Virus record (IMG/VR): IMGVR_UViG_2700989400_000006
Location: 1 to 25,248 of that record
Source of the DNA: a virus
Lineage: Duplodnaviria > Heunggongvirae > Uroviricota > Caudoviricetes
Direction: 5' to 3' (one strand)
Length of the DNA stretch: 25,248 nt
The position numbers and the translations under genes were made by a program. Of this stretch, positions 3,980 to 20,485 are shown piece after piece (position 1 is the first letter of the stretch; every line of letters begins with the position of its first letter). Under the pieces are notes generated by a model. That model was not told the DNA's origin, ran no database searches, and worked only from the letters and a program-made list of their open reading frames with translations.

Positions 3980-4525
3980 TTATAAACCAACGCGCTCTTT
4001 CATCCAGCCATAGACAAACGACTCGTTAGCCTCGCGTTTCTCGGCCAGCGCCAGATAACGCTCACCCTGCGTACAGTTCAGGGCTTTCACCAGTACCAGT
4101 TCGCCATCCCTGCCGCGATTTTTCAGATAAGAACGTAACGCATTAATGGTTCGCGGCCCGATCCCCCCGTCTGTAACTATGTCCGGATACAGCATTCCCT
4201 TCTGATTAAACACATTCAGCCAGCGCTGAAGCATTTTTGTGGCTACCGACGGCCCCATGTTTACCCCGGTATCACACAGTTCTGCAGCAATATCAGGAGA
4301 CAGGTTTGCCACCTGGTCAAAACGAGGTCCATACCAATAGTCTGCCTCAAGGATTTCCAGAGCCTGCCCGCGGCTCAAATCACGCATATCACCACGGTAA
4401 CCATGCGCGCGCGCCACTTTTTCAGTAATTCCCCACTTCGTCGCTCCGCCTGTATCGTCAGGATGACTGACATACCCCCCCTCTTTTCCGAGGATTTCAT
4501 CAAAAATTTCATCTCTCGATTTCAT
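3980..4525 (-). CDS. Endolysin, glycoside hydrolase family 108-like N-terminal domain plus a C-terminal peptidoglycan-binding-like domain
   Basis: The N-terminal motif DEILGKEGGYVSHPDDTGGATKWGIT is the pattern I associate with GH108 phage muramidases. The gene lies directly after two holin-like genes. I chose ATG 4525 (MKSRDEIF...). The track start GTG 4534 is an alternative. Confidence 0.85.
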   Translation of the reverse strand: MKSRDEIFDEILGKEGGYVSHPDDTGGATKWGITEKVARAHGYRGDMRDLSRGQALEILEADYWYGPRFDQVANLSPDIAAELCDTGVNMGPSVATKMLQRWLNVFNQKGMLYPDIVTDGGIGPRTINALRSYLKNRGRDGELVLVKALNCTQGERYLALAEKREANESFVYGWMKERVGL

Positions 4526-4526
4526 A

Positions 4527-4805
4527 TCAGCCACTCAGGAAAGCAAAAATTTTTGAAACATTACCGCGCGCACGCACTACCATGACACCAAACACCAGGT
4601 TCAGCATCACTACCAGCCAGTCTGCCGGCAACGGATGACCACAGAGATAACTTAACGGCGTTATCGCATACAACAGCATCAGACACCAGGCGCACCACGA
4701 TATCAGCGGTTTGTGTCGGGACTCTTTTCTGCGGTAGAAAAAAAGCGTCAGTACGATAACCGTACATAACGCCGCATTCAGTAATCCTGGAAGATTATTT
4801 GTCAT
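4527..4805 (-). CDS. Holin-like small membrane protein (92 aa, about 3 TM segments)
   Basis: MTNNLPGLLNAALCTVIVLTLFFYRRKESRHKPLISWCAWCLMLLYAITPLSYLCGHPLPADWLVVMLNLVFGVMVV has three hydrophobic stretches and a charged C-terminus. ATG 4805 is preceded by GGAGGAGG and overlaps the upstream gene by 11 nt. The endolysin gene follows immediately. Confidence 0.7.
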   Translation of the reverse strand: MTNNLPGLLNAALCTVIVLTLFFYRRKESRHKPLISWCAWCLMLLYAITPLSYLCGHPLPADWLVVMLNLVFGVMVVRARGNVSKIFAFLSG

Positions 4806-5187
4806 TACCACCACCTCCTCCACGCTGACGGGAGAACAGACCGGATACCAGTGATGTAATCTCCTGCTGGTGGATGAATGACAGGACTTTTACTGAGAGC
4901 ACCGACACCAGGACCGCACACAACGCATCAACGGAAGCACTGTTAAACCCAATACGTTCCGCCATGTAACCGGCCACACCACGGGCCCCAAGCACACCAA
5001 CAATAAAGGACACCAGAAAATGTGCAGCCACACGCCAGGCTGAAAGTGTCTGCGGCATTGTTGCCACAAATAACGCACCAGCGAACGCACCAAATACAAT
5101 CCCGAAATCCGTCCCGGTAAACAGCCCGAATACCGTCGCCCCGCCGAGCGCCACAGCAGTGCCGGAACCGGATAAGGGTTCAGACAT
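4795..5187 (-). CDS. Holin-like membrane protein (130 aa, about 4 Gly/Ala-rich TM segments, Gly5 tail)
   Basis: ATG 5187 (MSEPLSGSG...) has GGAGA 7 nt upstream. The sequence contains multiple hydrophobic Gly/Ala-rich helices and is the first gene of the holin-holin-endolysin block. Confidence 0.7.
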   Translation of the reverse strand: MSEPLSGSGTAVALGGATVFGLFTGTDFGIVFGAFAGALFVATMPQTLSAWRVAAHFLVSFIVGVLGARGVAGYMAERIGFNSASVDALCAVLVSVLSVKVLSFIHQQEITSLVSGLFSRQRGGGGGNDK

Positions 5188-5272
5188 ATTTATTCTCCTG
5201 TAAATAAAAAGGACCATCAGCGGCCCTAAAAAACTTTATCAAAGGTACCCGCAGATACCTTTTGTAGGCTGT

Positions 5273-5425
5273 TTATTCAGATTTGCGAAGTAAAGGCCAG
5301 AGTAAGACCGTTACCATCGCCACCAGCACACCATCAGCCAGTACCGACATCAGCCATCCAGTGAAATCCACTGCCACTACCAGAAACAACAGGATGGCAG
5401 CCAGCACAAGGCCCGCACTTTTCAC
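5273..5425 (-). CDS. Small predicted membrane protein (50 aa), below the ORF-track size cut-off
   Basis: Hand translation gives VKSAGLVLAAILLFLVVAVDFTGWLMSVLADGVLVAMVTVLLWPLLRKSE, with two hydrophobic helices. The GTG start overlaps the TGA of the TerB-like gene (GTGA), which suggests translational coupling. Confidence 0.45.
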   Translation of the reverse strand: MKSAGLVLAAILLFLVVAVDFTGWLMSVLADGVLVAMVTVLLWPLLRKSE

Positions 5426-5847
5426 AGATACTGCTCCAGTGGTAACTGAAGCGCCTGTGCAATTTTCTTGAGCTGCGCTTCTTCATCCGGACCAATGCCA
5501 TCCTGATCAGCGATATCCAGACAGAGGCAAAGCACGTCAACCGCCTCAGTTGTCCCCGCCACATCAGCCAGCTCACGCAATGCATGCGCATTCGCACTAC
5601 GCGGTGACGCTTCATAACGGGCGCGGATATTGGCGCTCATCTGGGCAATCTCACCAGAGAACGGTGCAAAAGCAGGAAGCGCAGCAATAGTTTTCTCCAG
5701 TACTGCGATTTCTTTCGCATCGCAGGTGCCGTCGGCATATGCAATGGAATATGCGCCCCAGACGGTCGCCTCCACCGCATCACGGTTCTCCATCTTCTTC
5801 ACTTCTGTGATGGCCTTGCGGGTTTTCTTTTTGAAAATACCTAACAT
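5422..5847 (-). CDS. TerB-domain (tellurite-resistance TerB-like) protein
   Basis: The protein is 141 aa and helical. It has the duplicated acidic ADG/DxDG...E motifs (YADGTCDAKEIAVLE and IADQDGIGPDEEAQL) that I associate with the TerB fold. Confidence 0.7.
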   Translation of the reverse strand: MLGIFKKKTRKAITEVKKMENRDAVEATVWGAYSIAYADGTCDAKEIAVLEKTIAALPAFAPFSGEIAQMSANIRARYEASPRSANAHALRELADVAGTTEAVDVLCLCLDIADQDGIGPDEEAQLKKIAQALQLPLEQYL

Positions 5848-5981
5848 CGTGACTTTTCCTTTGCGTAGACGAGCCTGCGCCAGATGGTTACCAGTCCACA
5901 GTGAAAGTCACACTGACAATCCCGTAAGCACCTCCTGAAAGGCTCTGTGTTTTTGATGTGCGCCAGGTGTGGCTCAGATAC

Positions 5982-6005
5982 AAAAAAAGCTCGCCGTAGC
6001 GAGCT
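5982..6005 (-). terminator. Strong rho-independent terminator inside the late transcription unit
   Basis: The minus strand reads AGCTCGC tacg GCGAGCT, a perfect 7-bp stem, followed by TTTTTTT. It lies 24 nt after the stop of ORF 6029..6307. Confidence 0.8.
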
Positions 6006-6028
6006 AACAGAAAATATGAAGCATGTTT

Positions 6029-6307
6029 TTATCCACGAAGTATGACGTTGAATTCATCCATACCGACACGGCTGGCTATCTCGTTGTATTCCTCAACAAG
6101 AGCCAGCAATTCTGAATTAGCAGCCATGAACTCTTCAAAAACCTTATGGATGGCATCACTGTTTAATAAAACAATGTTCTTTCCTGAAAGGCGATCAGGG
6201 GTAGAAAATATAACTGTCAAACGACTAAAGGCCCTGGCTCGTTCAGCATTAACATCCTCAATACGCTGCAACAAGCTGGAGCACCTGGAAATATCATCAA
6301 TATTCAC
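6029..6307 (-). CDS. Hypothetical protein (92 aa, helical/coiled-coil-like)
   Basis: This is a track ORF. GTG 6307 has AGGAG 4 nt upstream, and a terminator follows. I recognise no family. Confidence 0.5.
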   Translation of the reverse strand: MNIDDISRCSSLLQRIEDVNAERARAFSRLTVIFSTPDRLSGKNIVLLNSDAIHKVFEEFMAANSELLALVEEYNEIASRVGMDEFNVILRG

Positions 6308-6827
6308 TCTACTCCTGTCATCTGGATGATAATCATTTCACGGAGAGAAGCACTCAGAAGTACCACTGAAGTATAACTGGTGACCAGCTGCTTACACATC
6401 TGTTGCCATCCTGCTGATGATAAGTCGATATTAACCCTTCTGTCTATAAACGAAACAAAGGATAAGTTCAGGTTTTAAACACACTGCCAGGATAAAGTAT
6501 TGTATACAGTATAGAAGAGCGTTATTGAATGACATAAAAAACCAGACCTAATCCCTTATCCGGAAGATATATCAAATAAACGGGGAAAATGTATTAAGAT
6601 GGCGTTCCTATTCTCTCCATCCCTGATGTCCACGTAACTCGTTATAGAATCAGAACGCCATCTGAATACACAGAAAAAAAGCTGGCTTCACACCCTCCTG
6701 CATGTGTGAACGCAGTGCCCGACCACGTGCTTTCGCAACCAGCGAAAATCAGTTTTAAATACCGAAAAACGATAAGAATATATCAGAACTTCCAAGCATC
6801 CTGCTTGGCTTAGATATTAATCGAGGA

Positions 6828-13651: not shown

Positions 13652-14895
13652 CCAGCCTCCTGATTCAAAGTCTCGCAAGACATAGCTTTCGTTACTGGGT
13701 ATCGCTTGGTATGCTCTTCGATAATAAAGTCATTAATCAAAAATATTTTATCTTCTAATTGTTTCATGACTTGATCAAAGTCTGCGTCACTGAGTTTTTC
13801 TCTCTCTGCGGATGCAGAGTTGCTTTCTTTGTATAACGCTCTGAATTTTATATTTTTCCCAAGATATTTATCATCGAAACTAAGTTCAAAAGTTATAGTA
13901 TGATTCTTAACTACTGAGGAAAATGACTTCCATCGAATTAAGCTTCGATAAAACCCATCACTGCACAGTTCCTTAATTTGAGGTGCGTTCACTAATGATA
14001 GGCCATCATACGCGGCATTGTTAATGTTAAAAGTTAGGTTTTCATCATCGTCAGATGCCATTTCCTGATTATTAATGTCATCATCATTTTCGTTATCTGT
14101 AGAAGGTGAAATCTTGTTTAATAACTCTTGTGTTTCTTCGTTATTATTTCCTTCGAGATTATCTCCATTAATATCCAGAGATGTTTTTATTCTGCTTACT
14201 CTAACCTTTTCAAGACCAGCATATTCAAGTCCTGTTTTTTTATAATTTCCATCAAAATCATAAAGATGAACAGCAAAAATATTCCTAAGATCTGTATCAA
14301 CGATACTTGATAAATCTATTTCGTTGACAACTATGTTGTTACAAACTGTTGATGAATATGTATCAATTATTTGCTTGAGAATTTCTGAAATGCGTGGCGT
14401 ATAGTTATATCTTACTGAAACATATCCTTTTTTTACTATAAAAACTATACTCCCACTGTACAATTTTTTCTGCTGAAACTTACCCCTTCTAAAATCAAAC
14501 TCAGTATAATCAATAGATATATGATAGGTTTGCAAGCCTGAGTAATGATCAATTTTCTCATGCCCTAGCAACTTGGGTCTATTTTCTTTCACTTTGTTTA
14601 CAACGTCATAGAGTTTCTCTATATCAAATTCTTCATATATACGTTTTACTGAGAAGACGTCTTGGCTGGGTTTGGTTGCCAGTTTATCTTGTACTTCTCT
14701 GATGTGATTATATGAAAATGGCAGGTCTGATAATTTTTCTATCAATACCTCTTTTGATAAGTTAGATGGGAAAATTATCCCTCTATTGAAGGCGATTTTC
14801 CTTAATGTAACATCTGTGATTTTTGCACTGTTAGAGTGGAGGGCGGTATAAATGTCACTTTCGTTTGAAAACAACGTAGCTTGATATTTATTCAT
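13648..14895 (-). CDS. Cassette gene 2: hypothetical protein (415 aa), two domains joined by an acidic Asn/Asp-rich linker
   Basis: This is a track ORF. ATG 14895 has AAGGAG 7 nt upstream and lies 10 nt after the gene 1 stop. The linker covers residues about 241-286 (DINGDNLEGNNNEETQELLNKISPSTDNENDDDINNQEMASDDDENL). I recognise no family, Walker motif or TM segment. Confidence 0.85.
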   Translation of the reverse strand: MNKYQATLFSNESDIYTALHSNSAKITDVTLRKIAFNRGIIFPSNLSKEVLIEKLSDLPFSYNHIREVQDKLATKPSQDVFSVKRIYEEFDIEKLYDVVNKVKENRPKLLGHEKIDHYSGLQTYHISIDYTEFDFRRGKFQQKKLYSGSIVFIVKKGYVSVRYNYTPRISEILKQIIDTYSSTVCNNIVVNEIDLSSIVDTDLRNIFAVHLYDFDGNYKKTGLEYAGLEKVRVSRIKTSLDINGDNLEGNNNEETQELLNKISPSTDNENDDDINNQEMASDDDENLTFNINNAAYDGLSLVNAPQIKELCSDGFYRSLIRWKSFSSVVKNHTITFELSFDDKYLGKNIKFRALYKESNSASAEREKLSDADFDQVMKQLEDKIFLINDFIIEEHTKRYPVTKAMSCETLNQEAG

Positions 14896-14905
14896 GTCAT
14901 ACTCC

Positions 14906-15997
14906 TTATGAAAAGTGACATTTTCTATTCACCTGCTTGCTGGCAACCTGGTACTCAAATATAGATAGCTTTTGATTAACAAAAGGAATGGATACTATTT
15001 TTTCCTTTAACGTTTCTATATGAGATTGAGTGAAAGAATATATTCCTATGTAATCATTAATGGCGGATTGCAAATGAATGCTTGAGTGTGATGAGAACGG
15101 AGTTATAACAAATATTTTGTTAAATTGATTGAGTAATTGATAGTTAAATATATACTCTAAAAGAAATATAAAGTGGTTACTGGAATCAATCTCTTCCTTC
15201 CAGAATATATTCAATATTTTATTTCTTATTCTATCGCCACCATCATTTCTAATATATTCGTGTTCATATGAGTAAAAAATCATCCCAGATGTTATCATTT
15301 CAATTGTGGCTGGAAGGATTTTCCCTTTCGTTGCTATTTTATTATGTTTGTCAGGGTAAAAATATGTACAGTTCTCTATCTCAGGAATTTTTTGCCATAA
15401 CATATTTGTTTCTTGTGTTACTTTGTCAGTAATTCCTCTTCTAGTCTCGATGTGTTCTGTAACATCTAGTAAAAATCTGATCATAGTTGGGTCAAAAACG
15501 GCAATCACAGAGTTCTCTGGAAAATCATAACTTGCTGTGGCTGCTCCATTTAATTTCTCAATTAAATCAGAGTCATATTTATTGTCATGATTATATATAA
15601 AAAGTAGGCCGTTAACTTGATATTTCTCATTTGTGCTGTCAACAAATAGACGCCGCCACTCAGGACTTCTTGGCGCGCAAGCTACCTGTTGTGATAAACT
15701 TCGTACAGTGTTCAATATTGATTTTGTACCGTCAAGCGTGCTGGCACAATAAGATTTTAAATCTGTTTGTATATACTGAGTTATATCTGAATAAGGATCT
15801 TTATATTTGAAGACTACATCCGTAGGATGAGTTTTTTTTGGGTTTTCAGATAAAAGTTGTTTAGCGTTTAGATGAGATCTCAAACAACAGTCCCAACTTA
15901 TATCCGTTGTATTTTGGGTTTTCCAGCCTAACTCATCAAAAATTCTACTGGAAATGATACCTGCAATCTCATCAATATTCTTAGTTTCGCCGCCCAC
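14906..15997 (-). CDS. Cassette gene 1: hypothetical protein (363 aa) with an N-terminal PD-(D/E)xK nuclease-like motif
   Basis: GTG 15997 has GGAGG 4 nt upstream. The arrangement is E22 (IFDELGW), then D60 (HPTDVVFKY), then D79-L-K81 (YIQTDLKSY). This fits the helix, strand(D), strand((D/E)xK) core of restriction-endonuclease-fold enzymes. I recognise nothing in the C-terminal 190 aa or so. Confidence 0.85.
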   Translation of the reverse strand: MGGETKNIDEIAGIISSRIFDELGWKTQNTTDISWDCCLRSHLNAKQLLSENPKKTHPTDVVFKYKDPYSDITQYIQTDLKSYCASTLDGTKSILNTVRSLSQQVACAPRSPEWRRLFVDSTNEKYQVNGLLFIYNHDNKYDSDLIEKLNGAATASYDFPENSVIAVFDPTMIRFLLDVTEHIETRRGITDKVTQETNMLWQKIPEIENCTYFYPDKHNKIATKGKILPATIEMITSGMIFYSYEHEYIRNDGGDRIRNKILNIFWKEEIDSSNHFIFLLEYIFNYQLLNQFNKIFVITPFSSHSSIHLQSAINDYIGIYSFTQSHIETLKEKIVSIPFVNQKLSIFEYQVASKQVNRKCHFS

Positions 15998-16069
15998 GCT
16001 TCCTCCATAGTTCGTTGTTTTATCTAGTGAAGATCTGATTCATGGTTTTCCAAGCCCATGCGCAAAACA

Positions 16070-16098
16070 ATTAATCAAGTAAGAATAATCTTAATCAA
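16070..16098 (-). promoter_or_regulatory. Sigma70-like promoter candidate for the three-gene cassette
   Basis: The minus strand reads TTGATT (16093..16098), a 17-nt spacer, then ATTAAT (16070..16075). It sits in the AT-rich leader about 70 nt upstream of the gene 1 start. Confidence 0.4.
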
Positions 16099-16287
16099 TT
16101 TAATCTTTTTTATTTGAATCATCAAGAGCCCCATTACTGATAGGCATCAGTTGGTGGTATCTCTGCTCAAGCTTCAGTAAAATCTGGTTTGCTACTTCCG
16201 CTCCTGGCACAAAGCGGACAACCGCGCTAGCTCTACCCTGTGCCACAAAATGTCAATTTGCATCTGAACTAATGCACTTTAATCTCG

Positions 16288-20427: not shown

Positions 20428-20485
20428 TTTCTGGTGACGTTTGGCGGTATCAGTTTTACTCCGTGACTGCTCTGCCGCCCTTTTT
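20428..20485 (+). ncRNA. dicF: DicF small RNA (ftsZ-targeting, Hfq-dependent)
   Basis: tttctggtgacgtttggcggtatcagttttactccgtgactgctctgccgcccttttt matches the E. coli K-12 DicF sequence as I remember it, including the GGCGG...GCCGCC terminator stem and U-run. It lies upstream of dicB, as in Qin. Confidence 0.9.

Follow-up and report, generated by a model that had tools for sequence, protein, structure and literature searches.

A conserved PD-(D/E)xK nuclease core in a divergent 3HP cassette of a Qin-like lambdoid prophage and its relation to the GAPS4 defence system

The 3HP defence system was validated as a cassette of a P2-prophage hotspot that protected only against P1, and the original paper found 'no clear predicted domain' in it (Rousset et al. 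2022, PMC9122126). Defence-finding tools list the system as 3HP or Rst_3HP, and no mechanistic study of it was found in the searchable literature. The GAPS4 system (GAPS4a/GAPS4b) has been described as a DNase that acts non-selectively once triggered by DNA breaks; it forms an a2b2 complex, is set off by nalidixic acid or by a type VI secretion system DNase, degrades both host and phage DNA, and gives protection of a broad range (Mahata et al., bioRxiv 10.1101/2025.09.07.674715). Here we describe a three-gene cassette in a stretch of 25,248 nucleotides (nt), referred to below as the window, which comprises positions 1 to 25,248 of the IMG/VR virus record IMGVR_UViG_2700989400_000006 (Caudoviricetes), and we show that its first protein carries a conserved nuclease core of the PD-(D/E)xK type.

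The genes of the cassette are contiguous, all lie on the minus strand, and are located with their leader as follows:

15998 to 16287, minus strand: 290-nt AT-rich leader separating protein 1 from the DUF977 gene, the presumed promoter region
14906 to 15997, minus strand: protein 1, the cassette's Hp1, 363 amino acids (aa), GTG start, stop codon included
13648 to 14895, minus strand: protein 2, Hp2, 415 aa, with an N-terminal helical (SAP-like) region, two beta-rich RdgC-like domains and an acidic linker
12995 to 13651, minus strand: protein 3, Hp3, 218 aa; with the start that RefSeq uses, at 13651, the gene overlaps the stop of protein 2 by 4 nt, and a start at 13678 is possible (open reading frame (ORF) 12995-13678)

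The three products match the PADLOC models Hp1, Hp2 and Hp3 in that order (E 7.6e-41, 9.6e-11 and 4.2e-11, respectively), and protein 1 and Hp3 also match phrog_7059 (E 1.7e-91) and phrog_5850, respectively. The PADLOC models correspond over their full length (E ~1e-240) to the reference cassette of a P2-like element (333, 359 and 227 aa), to which the present Hp1 and Hp3 are about 33% and 21% identical. We surveyed 82 loci from 188 species genomes encoding a relative. In all 78 complete loci the genes stand in the order Hp1-Hp2-Hp3 and overlap or abut, the remaining 4 of the 82 being cut by contig ends, and the loci span Proteobacteria, Verrucomicrobia, Acidobacteria, Myxococcota and others. 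We concluded that the cassette belongs to the 3HP defence system as a divergent member.

The GTG start of protein 1 is preceded by GGAGGA, and the start and extent of the gene are the same as those of the RefSeq coding sequence WP_033560811.1. The original prediction, made from the letters of the window, had placed a restriction-endonuclease-fold signature, E22, D60 and D79-x-K81, at 15755-15934. The minus-strand translation of this segment, ELGWKTQNTTDISWDCCLRSHLNAKQLLSENPKKTHPTDVVFKYKDPYSDITQYIQTDLK, runs from residue E22 to residue K81 and confirms the coordinates, the strings and the residue numbers; the spacer between HPTDVVFKY and QYIQTDLKSY, put at 13 residues, actually has 8 (KDPYSDIT). 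The nuclease domain is already labelled in public databases: PF26115 (PDDEXK_GAPS4) is present in precomputed Pfam annotation on a 99%-identical database protein and on all 72 homologues of protein 1 obtained by a word-indexed search, and one RefSeq record names the protein PD-(D/E)XK nuclease domain-containing protein.

When 1.84 billion representatives were scanned in full with HMMER, 596 clusters matched at E <= 1e-3. Conservation was counted in 151 sequences, that is, the query and 150 representatives of 50%-identity clusters, and a second alignment contained 36 sequences with 26-87% identity. The residues and the domain concerned are the following:

15578 to 15997, minus strand: N-terminal PD-(D/E)xK nuclease domain, residues ~1-140
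15818 to 15829, minus strand: H57-P58-T59-D60 motif, D60 being by conservation the predicted catalytic Asp of strand 2 (GAPS4a equivalent THGID49)
15755 to 15763, minus strand: D79-L80-K81 of strand 3 (73-83), by conservation the (D/E)xK motif
15932 to 15934, minus strand: E22, the helix acid of the original prediction, not supported as catalytic by conservation or by its distance in the GAPS4a model

The results showed that H57, D60 and K81 are present in 151/151 sequences and D79 in 150/151, the single exception being E, and that P58 and L80 are present in 147 and 143, respectively. The 36-sequence alignment likewise shows no variation at H57, D60, D79 and K81. At position 22, Glu was found in only 28/151. 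These counts indicate that two elements of the signature are under strong constraint and that the third is not. Near-invariant besides are E4, W25, C37, C107, L132-F133 and N136-H137-D138.

An AlphaFold2 model of Hp1 built from the 36-sequence alignment (predicted local distance difference test (pLDDT) 84.4, predicted template modelling score 0.85) contains, in order, helix 6-22, strands 26-36, 56-66 and 73-83, helix 91-110 and strand 126-136, which is the canonical alpha-beta-beta-beta-alpha-beta core of the PD-(D/E)xK superfamily, as had been foreseen. Strand 73-83 pairs with strand 56-66 as a hairpin, and D60 on strand 2 faces D79 and K81 on strand 3. The closest folds include Mrr-like AF1548, FokI and the MspJI/AspBHI-type modification-dependent enzymes, together with Can2, Hjc and McrC; the matches cover 91-141 residues each and are confined to the N-terminal domain. 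No Foldseek match of the model in the Protein Data Bank (PDB) reached E <= 1e-3, thus Hp1 has no close solved homologue and its C-terminal domain obtains no assignment. We concluded that the D60/D79-x-K81 nuclease core of Hp1 is real and conserved, far beyond chance. The original prediction had made itself dependent on the fold and on conservation of its residues; the fold and D60, D79 and K81 bore it out, but E22 did not. As part of the overall explanation given below, D60 on strand 2 and D79-x-K81 on strand 3 probably make up the active site of protein 1.

Alignment of Hp1 with GAPS4a by hhalign gave a probability of 96.6% and an E value of 5.4e-10 over 205 columns, and GAPS4a matches the PADLOC Hp1 model at 2.9e-5. 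The homology of the two proteins, both of PF26115, covers the nuclease domain and continues into the C-terminal one, and in a joint alignment W25, C37, H57, D60, C107, L132 and F133 are invariant. The equivalent of D60 is D49 of GAPS4a, and mutants of the catalytic Asp (D59A/D49A) lose defence (bioRxiv 10.1101/2025.09.07.674715). Distances were computed from the published AlphaFold 3 (AF3) model of E. coli RiKo GAPS4a, the coordinates of which are in the preprint supplement; in this model D49, S69 and K71, corresponding to D60, D79 and K81 of Hp1, lie within 3.5-4.4 Å. A role as effector, which the original prediction had assigned to protein 1, is reasonable since the core is real and conserved, and the GAPS4a homology together with the loss of defence in the Asp mutant makes protein 1 as the likely effector the best reading.

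The second protein is also related to GAPS4. A profile of 81 Hp2 sequences aligned with a profile of 22 GAPS4b sequences (Hp2 8-236 / GAPS4b 7-253) with a probability of 96.75% and E 3.1e-10, controls giving E ~0.3. Against a single GAPS4b sequence the Hp2 profile gave E 0.61 when made of 26 sequences and a marginal E of 1.3e-4 when made of 81, so the relationship is convincing only profile to profile. It is the N-terminal halves that match, whereas the C-terminal half of Hp2 does not align; PF26110 was found on 0/80 Hp2 homologues, and NCBIfam GapS4b gave no match to Hp2. The fold modelled for Hp2 is RdgC-like.

The best explanation of the whole, to which we assign a probability of about 0.7, is that protein 1 is the nuclease Hp1 of a divergent 3HP system and serves as a GAPS4-like DNase effector gated by the RdgC-like Hp2. 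Starting from the fold, conservation, homology and gene architecture observed here, we infer nuclease activity, DNA as substrate, complex formation and DNA-break sensing by analogy with the two-gene GAPS4. Hp1 would be the DNase effector, with metal-dependent phosphodiester cleavage as its presumed chemistry, and would probably dock on Hp2, a putative DNA-binding protein of the RdgC-like (ring) type. Hp2 would sense DNA ends or breaks arising in infection and license the DNase of Hp1, and activation would result in non-selective DNA degradation, that is, abortive infection. Hp3 may modulate the complex as a third subunit specific to 3HP.

Several points weigh against this explanation. Protein 1 has G13 where GAPS4a has the site-facing acid E13, and only 90 of the 151 sequences carry an acid at position 13. 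The validated 3HP is only about 33% identical to the present cassette and its protection was limited to P1, and phage defence by the present cassette is a prediction from sequence. The complex of Hp1 and Hp2 and its ring are extrapolated from AF3 models of GAPS4, and the explanation does not account for Hp3, a family-specific third subunit. Scans with NCBIfam and with a local Pfam copy, which lacked the PF26115 model as distant homologues showed, gave no match for any of the three cassette proteins. PDB sequence-profile searches with Hp1, Hp2 and Hp3 likewise gave nothing significant. Finally, some PD-(D/E)xK enzymes cut RNA.

Among the alternatives, the one that survives best, unlikely as we consider it, is a restriction-like nuclease that attacks phage DNA directly, recognising it by a modification, by a structure or by an intermediate of replication, and not by break-triggered abortive infection. 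The presence of Mrr-like AF1548, FokI, MspJI/AspBHI-type enzymes and McrC among the closest folds is consistent with such a nuclease, and so is the narrow range of the validated 3HP, which is unlike the broad one of GAPS4; the additional Hp3 could then be a specificity factor. However, no methyltransferase and no recognisable DNA-reading domain were found in the PADLOC, local Pfam and NCBIfam scans, and since Hp1 and Hp2 are both homologous to their GAPS4a/b counterparts, a shared mechanism is more economical. An RNA target (tRNA, rRNA or mRNA) is improbable: the matches behind this idea score below the DNA nucleases, in vivo it is DNA that the homologous GAPS4 degrades, and the RdgC-like fold of its partner Hp2 is a DNA-binding one. 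We regard it as very improbable that the domain serves as a PD-(D/E)xK-like DNA-binding module with no catalytic activity, the toxicity residing in Hp2 or Hp3. The lack of a helix-1 acid at position 13 and the lack of an assigned function for Hp3 would fit a dead module, but a dead site is not expected to keep D60, D79 and K81 invariant across the representatives (D79 in all but one), no enzymatic signature was found in Hp2 or Hp3 by PADLOC, Pfam, NCBIfam and PDB profile searches, and the GAPS4a Asp mutant loses defence.

The helix-1 acid bears on the preferred DNase explanation as well as on E22. A conserved helix-1 acid facing the active site, a feature of the PD-(D/E)xK superfamily, was not found in protein 1, in which neither E22 nor the Gly at position 13 provides it. 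This acid varies across the superfamily, and its lack therefore does not exclude protein 1 from membership. In the GAPS4a AF3 model the helix acid facing the site is E13, with carboxylates 6.1-6.6 Å from D49, and L22, the equivalent of E22, lies 16.7 Å from the catalytic Asp (CA-CA, between alpha carbons). Among the 151 sequences, lack of an acid at position 13 goes with an acid at 9 (Fisher p 3e-8) or at 10 (p 9e-10), both values being uncorrected for phylogeny. From this anti-correlation D9/E10 may substitute in protein 1; the equivalent segment of the GAPS4a model is non-helical and 19 Å away, and D9/E10 as the replacement acid is a speculation. That E22 itself is the third catalytic acid, as in the full triad of the original prediction, is hardly credible: E22 is retained only among relatives of at least 38% identity, and with no usual acid at 13 a replacement must sit somewhere, but the position is elsewhere mostly V/F/I/W, its equivalent is far from the catalytic Asp, it lies nine residues and ~180 degrees round the helix from position 13, and it is the acids at 9/10, not 22, that anti-correlate with the acid at 13. 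We concluded that E22 is outside the active site and is to be dropped from the signature. Two further acids were considered as active-site residues and rejected, E4 and E233, whose GAPS4a equivalents are 25 Å and 21 Å from the site.

Further conserved parts of protein 1, and the linker of protein 2, are located as follows:

15887 to 15889 (C37), 15827 to 15829 (H57) and 15677 to 15679 (C107), minus strand: codons of a His-Cys-Cys cluster
15986 to 15988, minus strand: E4, the sole invariant acidic residue upstream of D60 (141/141 ungapped sequences)
15584 to 15592, minus strand: N136-H137-D138 at the end of strand 4 (N136 150/151, H137 142/151, D138 145/151)
14909 to 15505, minus strand: C-terminal domain of protein 1 (residues ~165-363), of mixed alpha/beta structure, pLDDT mostly 80-95
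14029 to 14166, minus strand: disordered acidic linker of Hp2, residues 244-289, D/E/N-rich, pLDDT <50

C37 is found in 150/151 sequences and C107 in 151/151, and both are invariant with H57 in the joint alignment of Hp1 and GAPS4a. The side chains of their GAPS4a equivalents (C36, C97 and H46) are 3.5-4.0 Å apart in the model and ~10 Å from the active site. The distances point to a cluster with a structural role, which may bind a metal, and so far from the site the HPxD His is unlikely to take part in catalysis. The triad is not mentioned in the 3HP and GAPS4 papers. E4 is conserved in GAPS4a as E3; it has a low pLDDT in the Hp1 model and may be located at an interface or act in trans. N136 and D138 were weighed as active-site candidates as well: for N136 the GAPS4a-model equivalent has its CA 8.2 Å from that of the catalytic Lys with the side chain pointing away, and for D138 the CA distance is 13.8 Å. 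The C-terminal ~200 residues, which in the original prediction could serve regulation or oligomerisation, are conserved and common to GAPS4a, the alignment reaching residue ~247; P170, Y214-P215, A230, E233, F276 and Q287 are conserved there, and Foldseek gave no fold match for this domain in the PDB.

The acidic linker occurs in enterobacterial and Vibrio Hp2, and the distant Hp2 proteins of Pseudomonas sp. HK3 and Psychrobacter lack it; DNA mimicry or auto-inhibition of the protein are possible roles. The gene encoding Hp3 lies downstream of Hp2 in all 78 complete loci. No relationship of Hp3 to GAPS4a, GAPS4b, Hp2 or solved structures was found, and a match to AriB in the PDB profile search (E 0.04) was taken as noise. 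As a guess, Hp3 is a regulator or a specificity factor.

The cassette is an insert of 31-37% guanine plus cytosine (GC) within prophage DNA of ~50% GC, and is located between the replication module and hokD, ydfU and the Q antiterminator of a Qin-like lambdoid E. coli prophage. Among 5426 complete E. coli genomes only 11 have the cassette, and its flanks are common to 946. In a promoter/terminator scan of the cassette, matches were no more numerous than in shuffled sequence. Directly downstream is a hok/sok type I toxin-antitoxin (window 12377-12551, minus strand; Rfam sok, 111.7 bits), and the ORF at 12227-12439 (minus strand) represents the frame of Hok/Mok, annotated as hokD in RefSeq. The antisense small RNA DicF was found at 20429-20480 (plus strand; Rfam, 76.7 bits), and the homologous RefSeq record has dicB/ydfD just downstream; DicF and the neighbouring genes identify the element as a Qin-like lambdoid prophage. 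At 21138-23609 (plus strand) an 823-aa prophage protein annotated as 'exonuclease' is encoded, with a long acidic, Gln-rich low-complexity centre and a Cys-rich segment.

New here are the placing of the predicted catalytic centre on Hp1 (D60, D79 and K81), the tie of Hp1 and Hp2 to the studied pair GAPS4a and GAPS4b, and the RdgC-like fold of Hp2. The gain is incremental and the added value modest, residing in the link of Hp2 to GAPS4b and RdgC and in drawing attention to Hp3. The result is a testable mechanism in which sensing of DNA ends or breaks would be coupled to a non-specific DNase, with Hp3 singled out as the difference. A further proposal, which we put forward only tentatively and consider doubtful, is that 3HP is a three-subunit elaboration of the DNA-break-sensing DNase of GAPS4, in which Hp3 gates or retargets the RdgC-like sensor ring and the active site has been remodelled (DxK for SxK; helix-1 acid shifting among 9/10, 13 and 17/18). 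If this is true, Hp3 would explain the narrow phage range of 3HP, and might represent a trigger adaptor of a new kind or a safety catch built into a self-destructive nuclease.

Compared with the reference 3HP, the present cassette has similar gene sizes and overlaps and the same three models in the same order. The reference lies in the P2 hotspot and the present cassette in a Qin-like lambdoid prophage, and the present Hp2 has the extra acidic disordered linker. A reference-type 3HP occupies 4001-6751 of the surveyed locus L084 from the E. coli plasmid pZ1323HEC0009-3, a 55-kb P2-like phage-plasmid, flanked by portal/LPO_1073 genes and DinI/replication endonuclease, in agreement with the P2 hotspot of Rousset et al. 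Hp2 shares its fold group with RdgC, lambda RexA and Iml3-Chl4, relative to which it adds the N-terminal SAP-like helical region and the acidic linker; it has no sequence similarity to RdgC. The PD-(D/E)xK effectors of Shedu (SduA) and Hachiman (HamA) show no sequence-level relationship to Hp1, and their partners or sensors differ from those of 3HP, Hachiman having a helicase and Shedu none.

As to GAPS4, in Citrifermentans bemidjiense (locus L089, 5209-6950) the pair is preceded by an HNH gene and followed by GmrSD_N and HEPN_RiboL-PSP, which looks like a defence island. Enterobacterial GAPS4 (RiKo-type pair of 308 and 385 aa) lies between TraC and TraU (loci L086-L088, 188-8220), thus inside the transfer operon of a conjugative element. 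GAPS4a has the motif HGxD...SxK, whereas Hp1 has HPxD...DxK (HPTD...DLK in protein 1), and the GAPS4 motif was found in none of the 151 Hp1 representatives. GAPS4 has two genes and its loci are without an Hp3-like gene, whereas 3HP has three in every complete locus. With homologous subunits, a different motif and this third gene, 3HP is, as judged from sequence comparison, a sister system to GAPS4 and not a member of it.
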